DNA of 64,000 nucleotides, from NCBI RefSeq assembly GCF_030384885.1, contig NZ_CP128613.1; one strand, written 5' to 3'. Below, in pieces: positions 2,497 to 62,205 of the stretch (positions are counted from its first letter, which is position 1; each line of letters begins with the position of its first letter). This DNA comes from Escherichia coli. GTDB lineage: Bacteria > Pseudomonadota > Gammaproteobacteria > Enterobacterales > Enterobacteriaceae. Below the pieces are notes generated by a model. It was not told where the DNA came from and searched no databases. It worked only from the letters and a program-made list of their open reading frames with translations. The position numbers and the translations under genes were made by a program.

Positions 2497-2817
2497 TCAG
2501 GCGGCTTTCTTGAGGCAGGCGCTCATAAACTTATTACGATCATCACCTTTCAGAGATTGTTGCGTTGCTTGATTATTACATTCGCGCATCTTTTGCTGCT
2601 GTGGCGTCAAACTTTTTTCACCAGGCGCAGACTTGCTGTTCTTCAGGCAATCACTCATGTAGGTCTTACGAGCATCCCCTTTCAACGCCTGCGCCGTCGC
2701 CTGCTGATTACAGGAGGTCATACGCTGTTGTTGCGGGGTTAAGGTTCTCTCGGCAGCGCCGACGGTGGTTAAAAAAACCAGTCCGAAAAGCAAGGTAACC
2801 AGTAATGTTATTTTCAT
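2497..2817 (-). CDS. psiF: Phosphate-starvation-inducible protein PsiF
   Basis: ORF 2497-2835; start MKITLLVTLLFGL at 2817; signal peptide and duplicated TPQQQ...C...ATQQ repeat; 106 aa. Confidence 0.85.
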   Translation of the reverse strand: MKITLLVTLLFGLVFLTTVGAAERTLTPQQQRMTSCNQQATAQALKGDARKTYMSDCLKNSKSAPGEKSLTPQQQKMRECNNQATQQSLKGDDRNKFMSACLKKAA

Positions 2818-2889
2818 AGCACCATCCCTCTTCATGTTTTAACCATGAGCGTTTGCGCCCGTGATCTGCCATTAAGTCTGGTTGCTAAC

Positions 2890-2928
2890 CGCAAAAAAAC
2901 CACCCGGCAGCGAAATTTCACCGCCGGG
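2890..2928 (-). terminator. Rho-independent terminator after phoA
   Basis: Minus strand reads CCCGGCGGTGAAATTTCGCTGCCGGG followed by a T7 run, directly 3' of the phoA stop. Confidence 0.6.
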
Positions 2929-2935
2929 CGAGGTT

Positions 2936-4351
2936 TTATTTCAGCCCCAGGGCGGCTTTCATGGTGTAGAAGAGATCGGTCTGGTCGGTCAGTCCAACGA
3001 CATTGGCGGCATGTGGGCCATACGCCGCAATACGCAGCTGACTACCGGTATGTTCTTGTGAATCCTCTTCGGAGTTCCCGTAACTCATCACCATCACTGC
3101 GCCATCTTTGGTATTTAGCGCCTGGGTGAGGCCCGGCGCTTTGGTGTCCGGCGCGACAATCTGGCTGGCGTGGGCGTGATCAGCGGTGACTATGACCAGC
3201 GTGTTGCCATCCTTTTTAGCGAATTCCAGCGCCCGTTGTACGGCTTCGTCGAGATCGACCGTCTCGCCAATTTGCCCACAAGGATTCGCCGCGTGATCCT
3301 GTTTATCGATTGATGCACCTTCAACTTGCAGGAAAAAGCCTTTCTCATTTTTACTCAACAATTCAATGGCTTTATCAGTCATCTGCGCCAGGGTCGGTAC
3401 GCTGTCATTACGTTGCGGATTAGGCGTACAGGTAACTGCGGGCTTGTCGATATTGCCGTGGTACGTTGCTTTCGGTCCTTGCCAGCGCACTGGCATATTG
3501 CCGTCAGCAAACAGTCCTAGCAGGGGTTTTTGCTGGTTCGCTTCCGTCACCGCATTCAGTGAGGCAGCATCGCTCACCAACTGATAACCACGCGCCTGCG
3601 CCTGTTCACGCAGCGTTTTTCCCTGCCATTCACCGGCGGTTGCCGTTTCCGCAAAGGTTTTTGCGCCGCCGCCAAGCGTAACATCGGCACGGGCGTTAAG
3701 CAGCTGTTCGGTAATCGATCCTTTTCCGCCTTTTTCCAGCGCGTTACCCGGACATTTTTCACTGGTCGCGCTCGGACCGTAGCATTTGCGCGAAGTCACA
3801 TGCGCCACCAACGCGGCGGGAGTGGCATCCTGCAACTCTGCGGTAGAAACGTTACCGGTCGCCAGCCCTGCGGCTTTTGCCATTTCCAGAATCGTTGGGT
3901 GATCTTTTTCATGAATATCGACACCCAATGCGCCGTTATAGGTTTTGACACCGGTTGACCAGGCAGTTGCTGATGCAGCCGAGTCGGTAACGTAGTCCGG
4001 TTTGCCGGTTTTTTTATTCAGCGCATAGTGAGTGTATTGCCCGGTAAGCGGTAAGGCATCAATACCTTTAAAAAAGCCGCCCGCACCTTCGGCATAATTA
4101 CGTGCGGCAGTAATTTCCGAATCCCCCATCCCATCGCCAATCAGCAAAATAATATTTTTTGCAGGCTTATCGCTAAGAGAATCACGCAGAGCGGCGCTCT
4201 GATCACCCGTTAAGCGGCGAGCACCGCCGGGTGCAGTAATATCGCCCTGAGCAGCCCGGTTTTCCAGAATAGGCATTTCTGGTGTCCGGGCTTTTGTCAC
4301 AGGGGTAAACAGTAACGGTAAGAGTGCCAGTGCAATAGTGCTTTGTTTCAC
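2936..4351 (-). CDS. phoA: Alkaline phosphatase
   Basis: ORF 2936-4393; GTG start giving [21 protein letters not shown] signal peptide at 4351; 471 aa; matches PhoA from memory. Confidence 0.95.
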
Positions 4352-30184: not shown

Positions 30185-30392
30185 CGCACGCCAGCCGGAT
30201 GCGGCGTGAACGCCTTATCCGCCTACATTTCGCCCATAAACCGTAGGCATGATAAGACGCGCATAGCGTCGCATCAGGCATCTGCGCACAACTGCCGGAT
30301 GCGGCGTGAACGCCTTATCCGGCCTACATTTCGCCCATGAGCCGTAGGCATGATAAGACGCGCAAAGCATCGCATCAGGCATCTGTGCACGG
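30185..30392. repeat. REP/BIME cluster, two tandem units
   Basis: Duplicated about 100-bp unit with GCCGGATGCGGCGTGAACGCCTTATCCGGCCTAC-type palindromes between frmB and yaiL. Confidence 0.8.
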
Positions 30393-32334: not shown

Positions 32335-32535
32335 GCCTACGGACGAAAGTAGGCCGGATAAGGCGTTTATGCCGCATCCGGCAGTCGTGCACAGATGCCT
32401 GATGCGACGCTGACGCGTCTTATCATGCCTACAAATTCCCGCGCCATCCGTAGGCCGGATAAGGCGTTTATGCCGCATCCGGCAGTCGTGCGCCATTGCC
32501 TGATGCGACGCTGACGCGTCTTATCAGGCCTGGGA
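32335..32535. repeat. REP/BIME cluster, two tandem units
   Basis: Repeated GGCCGGATAAGGCGTTTATGCCGCATCCGGCAGTCGTGC ... GCCTGATGCGACGCTGACGCGTCTTATCA units between mhpT and mhpE. Confidence 0.8.
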
Positions 32536-47350: not shown

Positions 47351-47415
47351 GTAATCAATGTCGGATACGGCGCACGCGCCTTATCCGACCAGCATATCAG
47401 GACAGAATGATCAAA

Positions 47416-48039: not shown

Positions 48040-48125
48040 GCCTGATGCGCTCCGCTTATCAGGCCTATAAGTTCAGTGATCTACGTAGGCCGCATCCGGC
48101 GTAAACAAAGCGCAGGAACGAGCGT
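48040..48125. repeat. REP element(s) between lacA and cynX
   Basis: GCCTGATGCGCTCCGCTTATCAGGCCTA and GGCCGCATCCGGCG palindromic units. Confidence 0.6.
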
Positions 48126-51486: not shown

Positions 51487-51590
51487 CCGCTGACACAGGT
51501 CAGCGGCTGGAATTGCCTGATGCGCGACGCTTATCAGGCCTACGAGTTCAGTGCAAGGCGTTCACGCCGCATCCGACATAAACTACGCTC
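51487..51590. repeat. Perfect hairpin plus REP element in the cynR/codA convergent gap
   Basis: GCCGCTGAC-ACAG-GTCAGCGGC (9-bp stem) directly after the cynR stop, then a REP-like unit; no T-tract. Confidence 0.5.
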
Positions 51591-51606: not shown

Positions 51607-52890
51607 TTACCGTTTGTAATCGATGGCTTCCGGCTGCTCCAGATACACGGTGGTTTGTGCCGGTTGCGTGGTGGCAATCACCTTACCACCACGTACCGAA
51701 TAGCGTACCGGAACCTGACGGCGCAGCGCATCAAACCCATTTTCAGCCGGCAGGATAATCAGGTTAGCGCTGTTTCCGGCGACTATGCCGTAATCCTGCA
51801 AATTCAACGTCCTGGCGCTATGGTGGGTGATTAAATTTAGGCCGTCGTTAATCTGCCCGTAGCCCATCAACTGACAAACATGCAGCCCCATATGCAGCAC
51901 TTGCAGCATATTCGCCGTTCCCAGTGGATACCACGGATCGAAGACATCATCGTGACCAAAGCAGACGTTAATGCCGGACTCCAGCATCTCTTTAACGCGC
52001 GTAATACCGCGACGTTTTGGATACGTATCGAAACGCCCTTGTAGATGAATATTGACCAGCGGGTTGGCGACAAAGTTAATACCGGACATTTTCAGCAAAC
52101 GGAACAGCCGCGAGGTATACGCCCCGTTATAGGAGTGCATTGCCGTGGTGTGGCTGGCGGTGACTCGCGCGCCCATGCCTTCACGGTGAGCCAGGGCGGC
52201 AACGGTTTCGACAAAGCGCGACTGTTCGTCATCGATCTCATCACAGTGAACATCGATGAGACGGTCGTATTTTTGCGCCAGGGCGAAGGTTTTATGCAGC
52301 GACTCCACGCCATATTCACGGGTAAATTCAAAATGCGGAATCGCCCCCACTACGTCAGCCCCTAAGCGTAACGCCTCTTCCAGTAACGCTTCACCGTTGG
52401 GATACGACAAAATCCCTTCCTGCGGGAAGGCGACGATTTGCAGATCAATCCACGGCGCGACTTCCTGCTTCACTTCCAGCATCGCTTTTAGCGCAGTCAG
52501 GGTTGCATCCGAAACATCGACATGGGTACGCACATGCTGAATACCGTTGGCAATCTGCCATTTCAGCGTTTGCCAGGCGCGTTGTTTCACATCGCCATGG
52601 GTTAATAATGCTTTGCGCTCGGCCCAGCGTTCAATGCCTTCAAACAGCGTGCCGGACTGATTCCAGTTCGGTTGCCCGGCGGTTTGCGTGGTATCCAGGT
52701 GAATATGCGGCTCCACAAACGGCGGTAAAACTAAACCTTGCTCGGCATCCAGGCTGTTTTCTGTTACGGGCATCACGCCGGATTGCGCATCAATGGCGCT
52801 GATTTTTCCGTCCTGCAGATGAATCTGCCATAGCCCCTCTTTGCCGGGTAACCGGGCGTTAATAATTGTCTGTAAAGCGTTATTCGACAC
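51607..52890 (-). CDS. codA: Cytosine deaminase
   Basis: ORF 51607-52905; GTG start giving [16 protein letters not shown] at 52890; 427 aa; overlaps the codB stop. Confidence 0.9.
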
Positions 52891-54139
52891 TGTTAGCCTC
52901 CACATGCGTCATTGCAGCTGTCGTTTTGCGATTCAAAATCGGGTTAAGGATCAGATAGCTCAGCGCACCACCTAATACCGCGTTGACCGGAACAATGCCC
53001 GGTAACCAGTGGCCTGCGGCAATCCCCAGCGCGACCGCCAGAATCGCCACCCAATTGACACTCATCATACGCGTGGTCGCAAAGTGCTCATAGCGGCGAC
53101 GGTTCATCAGATAGTCGGCGATGATCACGCCACCCACCGGAGGAATAGCAGCCGAAAGGAAGGTTAGCCAGCCGACAAAATTGTTATACAGCCATAGTGC
53201 GCAGACCGTGCCGATAATACCGTTGATTACTGAAAGAGTTTTGCTCGACATACCGGTAATATTGGCGAAACCTAAACCCGACGCATAGAGCGCGTTATCG
53301 TTGGTGGTCCAGATATTCAACCCCAGCACCACAATCGCGGGCAGCAGCAAGCCCTGAGCAATCATCACATCAGAGATATCCGCCATCCCCAGTGCCGCAG
53401 CGCCTGCCGCACCGAAAATAAACATCAACGAGTTGCCGAGGAAAAAGGCCACCATCGCCACCAGCACCGCCAGTTTGGCATTGCGACCAAAGCGGACAAA
53501 GTCAGCGGTGAGCGTACCCGCACTGATAAATGACCCCACAACCAGCGCCAGCGCGACATTGAAATCTAGCGGTTGTGCGGGAACGACCGCTTTTAAGGCG
53601 TCCAAACCGCCCATGCCGTTAACGGCCAGCCATACGGAATAACCGCCAAGGCAGGCAATCGCCGGAACCGCAATCACCGAAAGTACCGTCAGCGCCGAAA
53701 TGCCAAAGAAGACGGTGACGGTCATCAGTAAACCGGAAACGGCAATCAGCAAATTAATATCCAGCCCGGTTGCCTTGCCCACCGGAATAGCAAACATCGC
53801 CACGCCAACACCAAACCAGCCGACCTGAGTGCCGCCCAGCAGCAGTGAAGGCAGCCATGAGCCTTTAACACCAAACGAGAAGCGAGCAAGAAGATGGGTG
53901 GTCAGGCCGGTTTTTGCGCCAATGTAACCAAGAAATGAAGTGTAAATACCGAGGAGAAGATTACCGATGAGGACTGCGAGGAAGAAATCATGATAGCTAA
54001 GACCGGTTCCGAGAGTGCCGCCGGTCCACATACTGGCGGAAAAGAAGGTTAATCCCAGCATGACGAACGTCAATGCCAATACCCCTTTCCGCGCCGACTG
54101 CGGGACTGGCCCCTGGCTAAAGTTGTTATCTTGCGACAC
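52880..54139 (-). CDS. codB: Cytosine permease
   Basis: 419 aa polytopic membrane protein. Confidence 0.95.
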
Positions 54140-54297
54140 GAAATTCCCCCTTTTTGCTGTTTGAAACCCAAAAAATCCGCCGCATTCTATTCATCTGAAG
54201 ATAAAAAGCAATCGTTTTCGTGGAGGGGGTATATTTTTTATATGGATGAATGCGGAAAAGTGGATAAAAACTTATTTGAGAAAAAATGGGTACACAT

Positions 54298-54645
54298 GAT
54301 AAGACACGCCTGCGTCGCATCAGGCATCTGCGCACGGTGTCGGATGCGGCGCGTGCGCCTTATCCGACCTGCGGTTCAGGCCTGTAGGCATGATAAGACG
54401 CGTCAGCGTCACATCAGGCATCTGCGCACGGTGTCGGATGCGCCGCGTGCGCCTTATCCGACCTACGGTTCAGGCCTGTAGGCATGATAAGACGCGCCTG
54501 CGTTGCATCAGGCATCTACGCATAGCTGTCGGATGCGCCGCGTGCGCCTTATCCGACCTGCGGTTCAGGCCTGTAGGGATGATAAGACGCGTCAGCGTCG
54601 CATCAGGCATCTGCGCACGGTGTCGGACGCGCCACACGACACATC
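54298..54645. repeat. BIME/REP tandem array, about 3.6 units with 94-95 bp period
   Basis: Unit CGCATCAGGCATCTGCGCACGGTGTCGGATGCG.CGCGTGCGCCTTATCCGACCTGCGGTTCAGGCCTGTAGGCATGATAAGACGCG repeats from about 54316, 54410, 54505 and 54599. Confidence 0.85.
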
Positions 54646-54655
54646 CGACAATACC

Positions 54656-56542
54656 TTACTCTTCCATCGCCTGGCGGATCTGATCCAACGACGCAGGATC
54701 ATCAATGGTCGTCAGATCTCCCGGATCGCGTCCTTCACAAATCGCCTGGATCGTGCGGCGCAGCATTTTTCCGGATCGCGTTTTTGGCAATTGCGAGACA
54801 AACCAGACGTGCGCCGGGCGGCCAAAGTTGCCAATCTGGCTGTCCACCAGCGCCATAATCGCCTTCTCTTGCGAGTGCGCCACCTCGCGATCTTCCAGAC
54901 TGTCGCTCTCTTTCGGAATGACAAACGCCACCGCCACCTGCCCTTTCAGCGCATCTTTCACCCCAACCACCGCCACTTCAGCAACGCCCGGATGACTGGA
55001 GATACTCTCTTCAATCTCGCGTGTGCCAAGCCGATGCCCGGCAACATTAATCACATCGTCAGTGCGCCCGAGAATAAAGTGATAACCGTCAGCGTCACGG
55101 ATGCCCCAGTCAAAAGTGGCATACACCGGACGGGAAAACAGCGACCAGTACGTCTTCACAAAGCGGTCGTCGTCGCCCCAGATGGTCTGAATACAGCCCG
55201 GCGGCAACGGCCCTTCCACCACCAGCATCCCTTTCTCATTGACGCCGCACGGTTCGCCGGTGACTTCATTGAGCAACTGCACGTTATAGCCATACATCGG
55301 CACGCCGGGGCTTCCCAGACGCGTCGGCCTGTCGTCCAGACCGCGAGCAATTGCCATAATCGGCCAGCCGGATTCGGTCTGCCAGTAGTTGTCGATGACC
55401 GGCACATCCAGCGTATTGCTCACCCAACTGGCGGTCGGCTCGTCCAGCGGTTCTCCCGCCAGATAGAGCACTTCCAGCGACGAGAGATCGTGTTTGCGAA
55501 TTTCAGCGGTAGGGAATTTTTTCAGCACGCGAATGGCGGTCGGCGCTGAGAACATCCGGCTAACCTGATATTTCTCGACGATTTTCCACCACACACCGCA
55601 GTCAGGATAAGTCGGCAATCCTTCGTAAACGATAGTCGCCATCCCCGCCAGCAGCGGCGCGTAGACGATATACGAATGCCCCACTACCCAGCCGATATCC
55701 GACGCACAGAAGAACACACCGCCCGCTTTGCCGCCAAAAATGGTGTCCATTGAGGTCGCCAGCGCCACCGCATAACCGCCGACGTCACGCTGTACGCCTT
55801 TTGGTTTGCCGGTCGTGCCGGAGGTGTAGAGAATGCAGGAGGTTTCGTTGGATTCCAGCCACGCCACCGGCACCCGCGCGCCGATGTGTTGATGGCGCAA
55901 CGACGCGAAATCGACATCCCGCCCGCTGACGCGCGCCATTTTCGCCAGCCCGCGATCCACCAGCAAAACGTGGCGCGGCTGATGCTGCGCCTGACTTATC
56001 GCATCGTCGAGCAATTTTTTATAAGGAATGATTTTGCCACCGCGCGCTCCGGCATCTGCCGAGACAATCAGCACCGGTTTAGCGTCATCAATCCGCGCAG
56101 CCACGCTGTGCGAGGCAAATCCACCAAACACTACCGAGTGAATAGCGCCAATGCGCGCGCAGGCCAGCAGGGTAATATGCGCTTCGGCAATCATCGGCAT
56201 ATACACCAGCACCCGATCGCCACGCCGTACGCCCAGTGAGCGCAGCATTGACGCCACCGCGTTCACTTCGTCATGCAACTGGCGAAAGGTAAAGGTGCGC
56301 TCTTCTTCTGTTTCCGAAGAGACGGCAATTAATGCCAGCGCCTCTGGCTGTTTCTCCAGCCAGCGGTCGATGGCGTTATGACACAAATTGGTTCGGCCTT
56401 CACAAAACCAACGGGCAAACGGCGGATTGCTGTGATCGAGCGTTTGCGTAAAGGGCGTCTGCCAGTCAATACGCCGGGCCTGCTCGGCCCAGAATTGCTC
56501 CGGTTCGTTAATCGAACGCTGATAAAATTCGCTAAAAGACAT
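54656..56542 (-). CDS. prpE: Propionate--CoA ligase
   Basis: 628 aa acyl-CoA synthetase (TSGTTGKPKG AMP-binding motif). Confidence 0.95.
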   Translation of the reverse strand: MSFSEFYQRSINEPEQFWAEQARRIDWQTPFTQTLDHSNPPFARWFCEGRTNLCHNAIDRWLEKQPEALALIAVSSETEEERTFTFRQLHDEVNAVASMLRSLGVRRGDRVLVYMPMIAEAHITLLACARIGAIHSVVFGGFASHSVAARIDDAKPVLIVSADAGARGGKIIPYKKLLDDAISQAQHQPRHVLLVDRGLAKMARVSGRDVDFASLRHQHIGARVPVAWLESNETSCILYTSGTTGKPKGVQRDVGGYAVALATSMDTIFGGKAGGVFFCASDIGWVVGHSYIVYAPLLAGMATIVYEGLPTYPDCGVWWKIVEKYQVSRMFSAPTAIRVLKKFPTAEIRKHDLSSLEVLYLAGEPLDEPTASWVSNTLDVPVIDNYWQTESGWPIMAIARGLDDRPTRLGSPGVPMYGYNVQLLNEVTGEPCGVNEKGMLVVEGPLPPGCIQTIWGDDDRFVKTYWSLFSRPVYATFDWGIRDADGYHFILGRTDDVINVAGHRLGTREIEESISSHPGVAEVAVVGVKDALKGQVAVAFVIPKESDSLEDREVAHSQEKAIMALVDSQIGNFGRPAHVWFVSQLPKTRSGKMLRRTIQAICEGRDPGDLTTIDDPASLDQIRQAMEE

Positions 56543-56581: not shown

Positions 56582-58033
56582 TTAAATGACGTACAGGTCG
56601 AGATACTCATTGACCGGCATCTGTTCCAGGCGAGCTCTGTCGAGAGAAACGTCCAGAATGCGCTGCTGCTGTCGAGTCGGGAACTGGCGCGCGAGGTTGA
56701 TTTTGAATTTATCGACCAGTTTCGGAATACCGTCATGGCGGCGACGAGCATGACCAATTGGGTACTCCACCACCACTTCTTCAAATCGCGTACCGTCGGT
56801 AAACTCAAGGGTAATGGCATTGGCGATGGCGCGTTTTTCCGGGTCGTGGTAGTCAGCGGTAAATGCCGGATCTTCAAAGCAATTGATCTTCTCGCGCAGG
56901 GCGTCAATGCGTTTATCTTGCGCAACGTTGTCTTCGTAATCTGCCGCCGTTAAGCGCCCGAATAACAGCGGGATCGCCACCATGTACTGAATGCAGTGGT
57001 CGCGGTCAGCCGGGTTATTGAGCGGCCCTTTTTTGTCGATGATGCGAATACAGGCTTCGTGGGTGCGAATGGTCACTTTTTCGATATCTGCCGCCGTTTT
57101 GCCTGCTGCCTGCATCTGTTCATAGAGCGTCATCGCCGCTTCAACTGCCGTCTGGGAGTGGAACTCCGCCGGGAAGGAGATTTTGAACAGCACATTTTCC
57201 ATGACGTAGGAACCGTACGGGCGCTGGAAGCGGAACGATTCACCTTTAAAGGAGACGTCGTAGAAACCCCACACCGGCGCGGTCAGGGCTGACGGGTAAC
57301 CCATTTCGCCCGTTTTCGCCATCAGCGCCAGACGTACCGCGCGGGATGTAGCATCGCCCGCCGCCCAGGATTTACGCGTGCCGGTGTTCGGCGCATGGCG
57401 GTAGGTGCGCAGCGACTGTCCGTCTACCCATGCCAGCGAAACGGCGTTGAGGATTTCATCACGGGTCAGGCCAAGCATTTCGGCGACCACGGCGGTGGAA
57501 GCCACTTTCACTAACAGAACGTGGTCGAGACCGACGCGATTAAAGGAGTTTTCCAGCGCGATGCAGCCCTGAATTTCATGGGCTTTAATCATTCCGGTCA
57601 GCACCTGTTTCATGGTCAACGGCGTTTTGCCGCTGGCGACCGCGTTGCGCGAAAGCCAGTCCGCCGTTGCCAGAATGCCGCCGAGGTTGTCGGAAGGATG
57701 GCCCCACTCCGCCGCCAGCCAGGTATCGTTGAAATCGAGCCAGCGGATCATCGCGCCAATGTTAAATGCCGCCTGAACGGGGTCGAGCTGGAACTGGGTT
57801 CCAGGGACGCGTACGCCGTTAGGTACGACGGTGCCGGGGACAATTGGCCCCAGCAGTTTTTTACAGGCCGGGTATTCGAGAGCTTCCAGACCGCAGCCGA
57901 GAGTGTCAAGCAGGCAGTAATGGGCGGTGTCGTAGGCTACTTTGGAGCTAATTTCGTAGTTCATCACGTAATCGACGATATCAACGATTTCACGATCAAA
58001 TTCCGGACGGATGTTGTTAATTTGAGCTGACAT
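56582..58033 (-). CDS. prpD: 2-methylcitrate dehydratase
   Basis: 483 aa MmgE/PrpD-family protein. Confidence 0.95.
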
Positions 58034-58066: not shown

Positions 58067-59236
58067 TTACTGGCGCTTATCCAGCGCGACAAACTGGCGG
58101 TCTTCCGGTCCAACGTAATTGGCGGAAGGACGGATAATTTTGTTGTCCTGACGTTGTTCGATAATGTGCGCTGCCCAGCCGGTGACGCGGGCGATAACAA
58201 ACAGTGGCGTGAACATCTCGGTGGGAACGCCCATCATGTTGTAGGAAACAGCGGAGAACCAGTCGAGATTGGGGAACATCTTTTTGCTCTCCCACATCAC
58301 CGCTTCCAGACGATCGGCGATGTTGTACATCTTCAGCGAGCCGCCTTCCTGCGAGAGCTGCTTCGCCACGCGTTTGATCACCTGATGACGCGGGTCAGCG
58401 ATGGTATAAACCGGATGTCCAAAACCAATCACCACTTCTTTGTTTTCCACGCGCTTGCGGATATCGGCTTCGGCTTCGTCCGGCGTTTCGTAGCGTTGCT
58501 GGATCTCCAGCGACACTTCATTCGCCCCGCCGTGTTTCGGCCCGCGCAGTGCGCCAATCGCGCCGATAATCGCTGAATACATGTCAGAGCCGGTGCCCGC
58601 AATCACCCGGCTGGTAAAGGTGGAGGCGTTAAACTCGTGTTCGGCGTACAGCACCAGCGAAATATGCATCGCCTTTTCCCAGCTTTGCGACGGCTTTTCG
58701 CCATGCAGCAGATGCAGGAAGTGACCGCCGATGGAGTCGTCATCGGTTTCCGGCTGAATGCGTTCGCCGTTGTGGCTGTAGTGATACCAGTAGAGAAGAA
58801 TCGAGCTAAGTGATGCCAGCAGTTTGTCGGCAATATCACGCGCGCCGGAGACGGTATGCCCCTCTTTTTCTGGCAGCGTGCAGCCGAGCGCGGAAACGCC
58901 GGTGCGCATGACATCCATCGGATGCGACGCCGCTGGTAAGGCTTCCAGCACGGTACGCACGTTAGCCGGTAAACCGCGCAGGGCTTTCAGTTTCGTTTTG
59001 TAGGCGGCGAGTTCGTCACGGGTCGGCAGTTTGCCGTGGATCAGCAGATGCGCCACTTCTTCAAATTCGCAATGTTCCGCCAGATCAAGAATGTCGTAGC
59101 CGCGGTAATGCAAATCATTGCCACTTTTACCCACGGTGCAGAGCGCCGTATTGCCCGCCGGAACGCCAGAAAGTGCCACAGATTTTTTTGGTTTAATGAC
59201 ATGGGTACTGTTTTGCAGGATCGTTGTGTCGCTCAT
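58067..59236 (-). CDS. prpC: 2-methylcitrate synthase
   Basis: 389 aa citrate-synthase-family protein. Confidence 0.95.
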
Positions 59237-59275
59237 GTTGTCCTCGTCATTGTTATCATTTGTAGGGTCGAGATT

Positions 59276-59465
59276 GTTGTCGGATGCGACGCTATGCGTC
59301 TTATCCGACCTACAGTTCAGTTCATCCCGTAGGCCTGATAAGCCGCGTCAGCGACGCATCAGGCATCGGTTGTCGGATGCGACGTCATGCGTCTTATCCG
59401 ACCTACAGTTCAGTTCATCCCGTAGGCCTGATAAGCCGCGTCAGCGGCGCATCAGGCATCGGTTG
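59276..59465. repeat. BIME/REP tandem array, two units with 94 bp period
   Basis: TTGTCGGATGCGACG..ATGCGTCTTATCCGACCTACAGTTCAGTTCATCCCGTAGGCCTGATAAGCCGCGTCAGCG.CGCATCAGGCATCGG repeated from 59276 and 59370. Confidence 0.8.
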
Positions 59466-59489
59466 TCGAATACAACCAAAGGGCGTTTT

Positions 59490-60380
59490 TTATTTCGCCT
59501 GGTTACGGGCAAACAGGTCGTCGAGCTTTTCTTCGTACTGGTAGTAGTTAATGCTTTCATACAGCTCGTTGCGGGTCTGCATGGTGTCGATGACGCTTTT
59601 CTGCGTGCCTTCCTGGCGCAGGACGTTGTAGACATGTTCAGCGGCGCGGTTCATGGCGCGGAAAGCAGAAAGGGGATACAGCGCCATTGCGACATGGGCG
59701 CTGCGTAATTCGTCGGTGGTAAACAGCGGTGTTGCGCCAAACTCGGTAATGTTGGCAAGGATTGGCACCTGCACCGCATCGGCAAACTGGCGGTACATAG
59801 CGAGTTCGGTAATTGCTTCCGGGAACAACATTTCGGCACCCGCTTCAACATAGGCCTGCGCACGCTCGAGCGCCGCATCCAGCCCTTCAACCGCCAGCGC
59901 ATCGGTGCGCGCCATGATCACAAAATCAGGATCGGTTTTCGCATCCACCGCCGCGCGGATCCGATCCACCATCTCTTCTTTCGAGACGATCGCTTTGTTC
60001 GGGCGATGACCGCAGCGTTTTGCTCCAACCTGATCTTCAATATGTAAGCCCGCCGCACCGGCTTTAATCATCGATTTCACAGTGCGGGCAACGTTAAAAG
60101 CCGAAGAGCCAAAACCGATATCCGCATCCACCAGCAGCGGCAGCGAGCAGACGTCAGTGATACGACGAATATCAGTCAGCACATCATCAAGAGTAGAAAT
60201 ACCGAGATCCGGCAACCCCAGCGAACCTGCCGCCACACCACCGCCGGAGAGATAAATCGCCTGATATCCGGCACGCTGCGCCAACAGCGCATGATTAGCG
60301 TTGATGGTGCCGACAATCTGCAATGGATTTTCTTTAGACAGTGCAGCGCGAAACGCTTTACCCGGAGAGTGTAGAGACAT
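59490..60380 (-). CDS. prpB: 2-methylisocitrate lyase
   Basis: 296 aa isocitrate-lyase/PEP-mutase-family protein. Confidence 0.95.
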
Positions 60381-60442: not shown

Positions 60443-60618
60443 CAATTACATGGATGAAATTAAATGTTTTATTTCAATTTGTTAGAGAAAAAGTCATGAA
60501 GTAATCTGCAAATATGCGTTTCAGTTAACGTTTCAGGCAATGTTTCACTGCGTTTCATTGCAACAATTATGAAACAAGACTAAACCCAATATTCGGTTTC
60601 TTAACTTTGCGGTGCGCT

Positions 60619-62205
60619 ATGGCACATCCACCACGGCTGAATGACGACAAACCGGTTATCTGGACGGTATCTGTAACGCGGCTGTTCGAGCTGTTTCGCG
60701 ATATCAGTCTCGAGTTTGATCACCTGGCAAACATTACCCCTATCCAGCTTGGCTTTGAAAAAGCGGTGGCCTACATCCGCAAAAAACTGGCCAGCGAACG
60801 CTGCGACGCCATCATTGCCGCTGGCTCTAACGGCGCGTACCTGAAAAGCCGCCTGTCGGTACCGGTGATTCTGATAAAACCGAGTGGCTACGATGTGTTA
60901 CAGGCACTGGCAAAAGCCGGAAAACTCACCTCTTCTATCGGCGTTGTCACCTATCAGGAAACCATTCCGGCACTGGTAGCGTTTCAAAAAACCTTTAATT
61001 TGCGCCTCGACCAACGTAGCTACATTACCGAAGAAGACGCACGTGGGCAGATTAACGAGCTAAAAGCCAACGGCACCGAAGCGGTGGTCGGCGCGGGGCT
61101 GATTACCGATCTGGCAGAAGAAGCCGGAATGACCGGAATTTTTATCTATTCTGCCGCCACCGTGCGCCAGGCATTTAGCGATGCGCTGGATATGACGCGC
61201 ATGTCGTTACGCCATAATACTCACGATGCCACCCGCAACGCCCTGCGTACTCGTTACGTGCTGGGCGATATGCTCGGTCAATCACCACAGATGGAACAAG
61301 TACGGCAGACTATTTTGCTGTATGCCCGCTCCAGTGCGGCGGTGTTGATTGAAGGGGAAACGGGGACGGGCAAAGAGCTGGCGGCCCAGGCGATTCATCG
61401 GGAATATTTTGCCCGCCACGATGCGCGACAGGGCAAAAAGTCGCATCCTTTTGTTGCCGTCAACTGCGGGGCGATTGCTGAATCTCTGCTGGAAGCGGAG
61501 CTGTTTGGCTATGAGGAAGGAGCGTTTACCGGCTCGCGACGCGGAGGCCGCGCCGGGCTGTTCGAAATTGCCCACGGCGGTACGCTGTTTCTTGACGAGA
61601 TAGGCGAAATGCCGCTGCCGTTGCAGACCCGGCTGCTGCGGGTGCTGGAAGAAAAAGAGGTCACCCGCGTCGGCGGGCATCAGCCTGTTCCGGTGGATGT
61701 GCGGGTTATTAGCGCCACTCACTGCAATCTCGAAGAGGATATGCAGCAAGGGCGTTTTCGCCGTGATCTGTTTTATCGACTGAGTATTTTGCGTCTGCAA
61801 TTGCCGCCGCTACGCGAGCGGGTGGCGGATATTCTGCCGCTGGCGGAAAGCTTTTTGAAAGTGTCACTGGCGGCACTTACTGCGCCGTTTTCTTCCGCGT
61901 TACGTCAGGGATTACAGGCAAGTGAAACTGTGCTGTTGCGCTACGACTGGCCGGGAAATATTCGTGAACTGCGCAATATGATGGAACGACTGGCGCTATT
62001 TTTAAGTGTGGAACCAACGCCGGATTTAACGCCGCAATTTTTGCAGTTGCTACTGCCGGAACTGGCGCGCGAGTCGGAGGAAACTCCCGCTCCACGTTTA
62101 CTGACGCCACAACAGGCACTGGAGAAATTTAATGGCGATAAAACAGCCGCGGCGAATTATTTAGGTATCAGCCGAACGACATTCTGGCGGCGGCTGAAAA
62201 ACTGA
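60619..62205 (+). CDS. prpR: Sigma-54-dependent activator of the prp operon
   Basis: ORF 60607-62205; start [17 protein letters not shown] at 60619; AAA+ core ([13 protein letters not shown]) and C-terminal HTH. Confidence 0.9.

Follow-up and report, generated by a model that had tools for sequence, protein, structure and literature searches.

Among the repeats of Escherichia coli, REP/BIME arrays are the most common, and the classical function of a REP is that of a barrier to mRNA decay. Newbury et al. in 1987 reportedly showed this function by deletion for the REPs between malE and malF, which are said to give protection from 3' exonucleases and differential expression. A later paper cites the same intercistronic REPs as protecting the upstream mRNA (Newbury et al. 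1987, as cited in PMC6061677) and reports protective stem-loops at the ends of many Rho-dependent transcripts, with REPs making up 24% of these stem-loops (PMC6061677). The BIME-2 class is defined by z2 and y REPs in inverse orientation, short linkers, and multiple tandem copies; its linkers vary in length and sequence, strains differ in its copy number, and BIMEs are substrates for cleavage and recombination by TnpA-REP in vitro (PMC3333891). The nearest functional analogue of the array reported here is REP325, an array of Z2 and Y REPs inside yjdMN, which stabilizes the upstream yjdM mRNA and attenuates yjdN 8- to 10-fold in a partly Rho-dependent manner (bioRxiv 10.64898/2026.03.23.713779). 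In the same study, tandem gene pairs with REP showed genome-wide a median upstream/downstream log ratio of 0.96 versus −0.09, variance between loci was large, and terminal REPs did not generally lengthen half-lives. The Rfam model RF02564 (naRNA4) was built on the inverted-Y and Z2 pair of the REP325 BIME-2 array.

The element between prpB and prpC is already known, and both a difference in repeat number and a link to RNase R have been published. Pobeguts et al. reported stronger induction of prpB than of the downstream genes and a difference in repeat number at this locus between K-12 and strain ZvL2 (PMC7360682). As cited there, Simonte 2017 is the source for the statement that posttranscriptional control by RNase R "may" target the repeats. 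Papers citing Simonte 2017 also state that RNase R hydrolyzes prpBCDE mRNA and that deletion of rnr gains or speeds anaerobic propionate use (PMC5371410). The K-12 RefSeq record annotates no repeat features in the prpB-prpC stretch, and the supplements of PMC3333891 and PMC12306157 contain nothing on prp.

The array was examined within a 64,000-nt stretch of E. coli DNA (contig NZ_CP128613.1), referred to below as the window; the region is 100% identical to E. coli strain 2013C-4282 (NZ_CP027579.1). Transcription of the prp operon occurs only upon propionate induction, under the control of PrpR and sigma-54. The open reading frame list and the NCBIfam matches placed the whole array outside the genes, within the 253 bp that separate prpB from prpC (Table 1). 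The consensus scan of the spacer detected no sigma-70-like promoter and no intrinsic terminator-like site, the latter on either strand, and none of the four array hairpins was followed on its 3' side by a T run on sequence inspection. An internal prpC promoter was therefore ruled out for want of a consensus site, and an intrinsic terminator after prpB was ruled out because neither a consensus site nor a T run after the hairpins was present. Two plus-strand open reading frames (59284-59544 and 59036-59332) were rejected as repeat artefacts, since both cross the REPs and the adjoining genes in the antisense direction. Co-transcription across prpB-prpC is taken from the literature (PMC7360682). 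The core of the prpC leader, ACCCTACA...ACGAGGACAAC, was conserved among enterobacterial genera in the outgroup spacers.

Table 1. Positions of the prp genes, the two BIME arrays and the parts of the prpB-prpC array in the window
Feature	Position	Strand	Basis or detail
codB	52880-54139	minus	NCBIfam equivalog far above cut-off
Sister BIME-2 array downstream of prpE, 3.6 units of 94-95 bp	54295-54633	minus	TRF, REP scan
prpE	54656-56542	minus	NCBIfam equivalog far above cut-off
prpD	56582-58033	minus	NCBIfam equivalog far above cut-off
prpC (2-methylcitrate synthase), downstream of array	58067-59236	minus	NCBIfam NF009006, 721 bits
prpC leader, unique, 39 nt	59237-59275	minus	Shine-Dalgarno GAGGA at 59241-59245
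Tandem repeat call	59276-59468		TRF
Full 93-nt copies	59276-59368, 59369-59461		repeat search
Y REPs by scan	59280-59313, 59373-59406	plus orientation	REP scan
Z2 REPs by scan	59329-59363, 59422-59456	minus orientation	REP scan
Inverted Y REP hairpin, prpC-proximal unit, last one	59279-59309	minus	inverted repeat, REP scan, −17.8 kcal/mol
Inverted Y, 7-nt head-to-head linker and Z2, across unit junction	59332-59403	minus	register matching Rfam naRNA4
Z2 REP hairpin, prpC-proximal unit	59333-59364	minus	inverted repeat, REP scan, −20.0 kcal/mol
Inverted Y REP hairpin, prpB-proximal unit	59372-59402	minus	inverted repeat, REP scan, −15.2 kcal/mol
Tail-to-tail linker, 15 nt, prpB-proximal unit	59407-59421	minus	flanked by the CCTAC/GTAGG feet of the two REPs
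Z2 REP hairpin, prpB-proximal unit, first REP hairpin on transcript	59426-59457	minus	inverted repeat, REP scan, −22.7 kcal/mol
Weak 6-bp hairpin GGTTGTATTCGACAACC, 12 nt past prpB stop	59461-59477	minus	fold −5.5 kcal/mol
Partial third copy, longest call	59462-59476		15 nt, 80% identical
prpB stop codon TAA	59492-59490	minus	sequence
prpB (methylisocitrate lyase), upstream of array	59490-60380	minus	NF008455/TIGR02317 equivalogs, 560 and 455 bits
prpR, divergent from prpBCDE	60607-62205	plus	NCBIfam equivalog far above cut-off

The original prediction had described two tandem BIME units with a period of 94 bp between prpC and prpB, inside the prpBCDE transcript. Two tandem units were indeed found by both TRF and the repeat search (59276-59461), and the location within the prpBCDE transcription unit agreed with the co-orientation of the genes and with the lack of promoter or intrinsic terminator matches in the spacer. 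The assignment to BIMEs also held, because Y and Z2 REPs alternate in orientation and an RF02564 match lies above gathering. The period, however, was 93 bp by TRF (2.1 copies, 97% matches, score 365). The two full copies differed by three mismatches and were accompanied by a partial third copy of 7 to 15 nt.

On the transcript strand, each unit consists of a Z2-type REP, the tail-to-tail linker and an inverted Y-type REP. The transcript thus reads through the prpB TAA, 12 nt, the weak hairpin, the Z2-linker-inverted Y module twice, the leader and the prpC ATG, with the first REP hairpin beginning 32 nt past the prpB stop and the last one ending 42 nt upstream of the prpC ATG. The weak hairpin GGTTGTATTCGACAACC is the partial third copy and looks like the eroded 3' half of a Y REP (cf. 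GTCGCATCCGACAACC). REPs were located with a variable-gap regular expression; a fixed-spacing pattern missed real REPs because the apex lengths of Y and Z2 differ. All four REPs carried the CCTAC/GTAGG foot, and every hairpin fold had an internal loop at the GATG/TTATC position. The feet flanking the tail-to-tail linker are able to pair into a third short helix. The head-to-head linker, AACCGAT, measured 7 nt. The Z2 copies were 35 nt long and distinct from the 28-nt Z1 copies at positions 48041 and 51516 of the window. The Y copies represent a variant with T/A instead of the canonical C/G pair at the base of the stem (TCGGATG...ATCCGA) and with an apex resembling that of Z2; a canonical Y at position 30295 of the window served for comparison. 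Elsewhere in the window, this stem-base variant was found only in the array between codB and prpE and in one degenerate Y-like REP (47361).

Y and Z2 REPs alternating in orientation, CCTAC/GTAGG feet and tandem copies fit the definition of BIME-2 (PMC3333891). In addition, the tandem copy number varied among strains (2.1 here; 0 to 5 and 7 elsewhere). The published class also has a short S linker within the REP pair and s, l or r motifs at the flanks; the linkers here, compared by length, were short, at 15 nt tail to tail and 7 to 9 nt head to head. The search against RF02564 gave 65.8 bits (gathering, 59.5) for a full-length match (model positions 1-77) spanning 59332-59403 on the minus strand; other registers of the array scored 30 to 36 bits, and the opposite strand scored 48.5 bits. 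We are almost certain that the prpB-prpC element is a BIME-2 of two tandem 93-bp units.

The array at codB/prpE has the same Y variant, the same layout of Y, linker and inverted Z2, and the same strand as the prpB-prpC array, but it stands at the 3' end of the operon, whereas the prpB-prpC array is intra-operonic. The periods of the two arrays, which had been given as equal, were close but unequal (93 versus 94 to 95 bp). The unit sequences had also been described as different. For the most part this was an artefact of phase; both linkers do differ, being 11 and 15 nt at codB/prpE and 15 and 9 nt at prpB-prpC. The contrast drawn between TTGTCGGATGCGACG and CGCATCAGGCATCTGCG arose because the start of a Y REP was compared with the end of a Z2 REP, and both motifs are present in both arrays. 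When the units were aligned in phase, 75 to 76 of 99 to 100 columns were identical (about 76%). By segment, the prpB-prpC and codB/prpE units shared 29/34 positions in Y, 31/35 in Z2, 8/15 in the tail-to-tail linker and 8/15 in the head-to-head linker, and the REP cores were 85 to 89% identical. Against RF02564, the codB/prpE array scored 40 to 59 bits, just under gathering. Judged by these alignments, the two arrays are one kind of element and differ mainly in their linkers. As to whether the two BIME arrays that flank prpCDE mediate deletions, SCU-171 was the sole genome seen with prpB beside codB, and the endpoints of its deletion lay within both coding sequences and outside the arrays. The window contained two further BIME arrays, with a period of about 101 bp.

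We examined the predicted structure of the spacer RNA and its conservation. The fold energy was −112.8 kcal/mol, compared with −74 ± 4.6 kcal/mol for shuffled sequences (z = −8.4), and none of the 200 shuffles folded as well. With three differences between the 93-nt copies and this z score, the tandem repeat is far beyond chance. In ten alleles with 17 distinct units between them, standard pairs filled 97% of the pair cells, versus 28 to 40% in slid controls. No compensatory covariation above shuffles was detected among the 17 distinct units, whose divergence is too small, and one Z2 stem pair was a C.A mismatch in 7 of them. Because of the missing covariation excess and this mismatch, selection at the RNA level is inseparable from plain palindromy. 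The palindromes are conserved, and as far as the sequences indicate the pattern is equally compatible with RNA-level and DNA-level selection. RNAalifold favored an alternative long Z2:Y hairpin, and the four-hairpin conformation is a prediction. The prpC ribosome-binding site was unpaired in the predicted spacer fold. The RNA directly downstream of the array contained 38 C versus 28 G in 139 nt, a weak Rho-friendly feature; the array itself is not C-rich, and a rut site inside it is thus unlikely.

The number of units differed widely among E. coli strains. The spacer was 44 bp long with no unit in O104:H4 C227-11, 155 bp with one unit in O157:H7, and 159 bp with one unit in the ST131-type strain MNCRE44. 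From two units upward it grew in 93-bp steps, being 253 bp in the window and in S17-1 (two units), 346 bp in ST540 and 98193 (three), 439 bp in K-12 MG1655 (four) and 532 bp in WP7-S17 (five), with 718 bp in SX12 (seven). For a population sample, 59 records were taken at even steps through the 5,222 matches to a flank-only query. Counts read from these assemblies, in which repeats may be collapsed or expanded, were zero units in 22 records, one in 15, two in 1, three in 6, four in 14 and five in 1. The sole two-unit record among the 59 was the source strain itself, and many of the four-unit records were K-12 laboratory derivatives; about 20 further two-unit genomes occurred among the best 40 of the 5,222 matches. 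The two-unit form is a minor allele. In the 22 sampled genomes with the 44-bp spacer (about 37%), no REP was present and the operon was intact, which indicates that the array is dispensable for operon function.

Comparison of closely related haplotypes pointed to rapid changes in unit number. The flanks of S17-1 (two units) and MG1655 (four units) showed mismatches at 0/737 and 1/751 positions, and S17-1 begins with a unit that joins parts of K-12 unit 1 and unit 2/3, a chimera that implies an in-register deletion of 186 bp. Likewise, SX12 (seven units) and ST540 (three units) differed at 1/2054 flank positions, and within the SX12 array a block of three units is duplicated. On this sequence evidence, unit number changes much faster than point substitution. 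In-register recombination or slippage among the units, perhaps aided by TnpA-REP, would make the array grow and shrink. The left flank was identical in all occupied E. coli alleles. Precise excision was rejected as the origin of the 44-bp allele: about 67 bp would remain if the CGACAAC repeats on either side had recombined, and this allele also has another left flank and is missing the 9-nt TAACAATGA close to the ribosome-binding site.

Next, we compared the same spacer in other species. In E. albertii, the 405-bp spacer holds about 3.5 units of the BIME type found at that site in E. coli. Citrobacter carries one or two species-specific REPs of its own, starting 0 to 7 nt past the prpB stop, and the spacer of Salmonella enterica subsp. 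arizonae and diarizonae contains two REPs; there too a REP starts 0 to 7 nt after the stop. The Kluyvera spacer retains a REP remnant. The spacers of Pseudocitrobacter, Shimwellia and Pluralibacter were 39 to 57 bp long with no REP, and those of more distant genera were mostly shorter than 75 bp. Species-specific REPs have thus settled repeatedly in the prpB-prpC spacer.

Situated between co-oriented genes of the operon, downstream of prpB, the array has stable predicted hairpins, as would suit an element that stabilizes the upstream mRNA and attenuates the downstream genes. It would be transcribed within the sigma-54/PrpR-driven prpBCDE mRNA, and its RNA would fold into four stable hairpins. 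On decay intermediates these may stall PNPase and RNase II, both 3'-to-5' exonucleases, and prpB RNA would consequently outlast prpCDE RNA. At the same time, the long untranslated structured gap may let some transcription drop off before prpC, in part through Rho. The decay barrier and the attenuation would together shift the balance toward PrpB and away from PrpC, PrpD and PrpE, probably to a greater extent when there are more units, and RNase R, which degrades structured RNA, would clear the REP-protected RNA. On balance, we lean toward the view that the array has a measurable effect favoring prpB over prpCDE through an exonuclease barrier and partial attenuation. The decay barrier named in the original prediction accords with REP325, whose mode of action is the one proposed here, and with the published RNase R effect on prpBCDE and the stronger induction of prpB. 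In the REP325 analogue, the downstream attenuation (8- to 10-fold) is at least as large as the stabilization, and a decay block alone would be an incomplete picture.

The array could also be passenger DNA, that is, a selfish or neutral repeat whose copy number drifts in a permissive untranslated spacer through slippage, unequal recombination or the activity of TnpA-REP, and whose effects on expression are incidental and unselected. Its absence from about 37% of the 59 sampled genomes, the segregation of 0 to 7 units, the differences of two to four units between near-identical haplotypes and the presence of unrelated species-specific REPs, or of none, in the spacers of other genera all speak for this explanation, as do the lack of a covariation signal in the 17 units and the known strain variability and in vitro recombination of BIMEs by TnpA-REP (PMC3333891). 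However, a passenger may still have a molecular effect, since REP325 shifts the expression of its neighbors by up to an order of magnitude. Moreover, E. albertii keeps the array type at the site, so that it either has persisted since before the split or was re-acquired, and the recurrence of REPs across several genera could mean benefit as well as permissiveness. We regard the passenger explanation as possible but somewhat unlikely. A role at the DNA level, in which the BIME-2 would be a DNA gyrase site managing the supercoiling that operon transcription generates or local chromosome organization, draws on the binding and cleavage of BIMEs by gyrase, BIME-2 being bound more tightly than BIME-1 (Yang & Ames 1988; Bachellier 1994; Espeli & Boccard 1997, via PMC1475751), and the prpB-prpC element is a BIME-2. 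Yet no sequence feature sets this array apart from other BIME-2 elements, the array is dispensable, and for REP325 neither long-range REP-REP contacts nor an effect on compaction were seen (Harris et al. 2026, bioRxiv 10.64898/2026.03.23.713779); we hold this role to be very unlikely.

Two other explanations start from the RNA. The transcript might be processed to naRNA4-like RNAs of about 75 nt with two hairpins, which would act with HU as nucleoid-associated RNAs, and the RF02564 match above gathering does lie on the transcript strand. However, RF02564 is in effect a generic model of an inverted Y and a Z2; because it also matches the codB/prpE array (at 54 to 59 bits) and the opposite strand, the match shows sequence kinship and not function. 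The prp operon is moreover transcribed only under propionate induction, and the functional claim for naRNA4 is itself disputed (bioRxiv 10.64898/2026.03.23.713779); we give this explanation very little credence. The first REP might otherwise act as a translation brake that stalls ribosomes at the prpB stop and leads to cleavage and tmRNA action, given that REPs within 15 nt of a stop are cited as down-regulating translation (Liang, Rudd & Deutscher 2015, via PMC12306157) and that the Citrobacter and Salmonella REPs start 0 to 7 nt after the prpB stop. In the window, however, the first REP hairpin is 32 nt away, well outside this limit, the structure at 12 nt is a weak 6-bp non-REP hairpin (−5.5 kcal/mol), and the left flank is unchanged in all occupied E. 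coli alleles. A translation brake is therefore extremely improbable.

The preferred reading, an array that favors prpB over prpCDE, can be extended to the number of units. It is doubtful, given the labile copy number, that strong selection acts on a fixed expression ratio. A more speculative idea, which we consider unlikely, is that the unit number (0 to 7) serves as a fast-mutating heritable dial of expression, similar to the variable-number tandem repeats of contingency loci, with graded survival of transcription and mRNA beyond prpB. If so, unit number would adjust the PrpB:PrpCDE stoichiometry, the length of the lag on propionate and how well toxic 2-methylcitrate intermediates are tolerated; selection would favor different settings in different lineages, and the long propionate lag of K-12 would come partly from its four units. 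The unrelated REPs in the Citrobacter, Salmonella and E. albertii spacers would then be the outcome of convergent selection favoring a structured element at this place in the operon. Apart from this idea, the natural series of 0, 1, 2, 3, 4, 5 and 7 units, some on near-identical haplotypes, offers a dose test of BIME-2 copy number against operon expression, a question left open by the 2026 work on REP325, and the allelic series may help to explain strain differences in propionate use.

Finally, we compared the locus with the known systems. K-12 MG1655 shares the site, the flanks and the 93-bp unit of Z2 and inverted Y with the window and has four units instead of two, with a small number of base changes spread over the apex stem of Z2, the loop of Y and the tail-to-tail linker; the linker reads GGGATGAAC in the window and GGGGTGCAC or GAGGTGCAC in K-12. 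The stop-proximal REPs of Liang 2015 likewise lie downstream of a coding sequence in one transcript, but at a defining distance of at most 15 nt, compared with 32 nt here. As at malE-malF, REP hairpins stand between the genes of one operon; the malE-malF function came from deletion, whereas we infer it for prpB-prpC, which, unlike malE-malF, is a regular tandem BIME-2 of variable copy number. Compared with REP325, which has six pairs, the prpB-prpC array has two, its head-to-head linker is 6 nt shorter, and its Y is the T/A stem-base variant. Both are tandem Z2/Y BIME-2 arrays between co-oriented genes of one operon.

In E. coli SX12 (compared locus L005), the prpB-prpC spacer (locus positions 1338-2055) contained seven units, arranged as K-12 units 1-2-3 followed by 1-2-3-4. 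The SX12 array thus contains a duplicated three-unit block of 279 bp, which indicates that array expansion proceeds by multi-unit steps in addition to single units.

The REP-free 44-bp allele of O104:H4 (compared locus L004) differed from the window at both ends of the spacer. The 9-nt sequence TAACAATGA, positioned directly upstream of the prpC Shine-Dalgarno sequence, was missing (compare window positions 59237-59275), and the sequence past the prpB stop codon was unlike that of the array-bearing window. Clean excision of the array was rejected as the origin of the allele, and the 44-bp form is a separate haplotype. In E. coli SCU-171 (NZ_CP054363.1, L091, locus positions 2625-3635), a deletion has fused codB and prpB, both of them truncated; prpC, prpD, and prpE are lost together with both BIME arrays. 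Recombination between the two arrays was considered as the cause; however, the deletion endpoints lie within coding sequences, and this explanation was therefore rejected. The prpB-prpC region had no match in 208 of the 5,426 complete E. coli genomes searched (approximately 4%).

In K-12 MG1655 (L001, NC_000913.3, 349573-350011), the locus tags skip from b0331 (prpB) to b0333 (prpC); b0332 was an ORF formerly called within the prpB-prpC REP array and since withdrawn. Spurious ORFs also cross the prpB-prpC repeats on the plus strand of the window, such as an 86-aa ORF at 59284-59544. Further REP and BIME elements were located elsewhere in the window.

Additional REP and BIME elements and their positions in the window
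Element	Position	Remarks
Z2-Y-Z2 cluster	30243-30379	period ~101 bp; canonical Y sequence
Y-Z2-Y-Z2 cluster	32349-32533	period ~101 bp; canonical Y sequence
Degenerate Y-like REP (n = 1)	47361-47393	
Z1-type REP, single	48041-48068	28 nt
Z1-type REP, single	51516-51543	28 nt

Two short tandem repeats with periods of 12 and 10, CGTTTCAGGCAA and GTTTCACTGC, are located at 60517-60561 within the divergent prpR-prpB control region; they may belong to the architecture of the PrpR enhancer or the sigma-54 promoter.

In Citrobacter spp. and Salmonella enterica subsp. arizonae and diarizonae (compared loci L011-L027 and L083), the prpB-prpC spacer REPs were species-specific, and their order and orientation varied among genera. 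These REPs start 0 to 7 nt past the prpB stop codon, whereas the distance is 32 nt in E. coli. REPs located ≤15 nt from a stop codon are reported to stall terminating ribosomes (Liang, Rudd & Deutscher 2015, as summarised in PMC12306157). The Citrobacter and Salmonella REPs are inside this range, whereas the E. coli REP is outside it.
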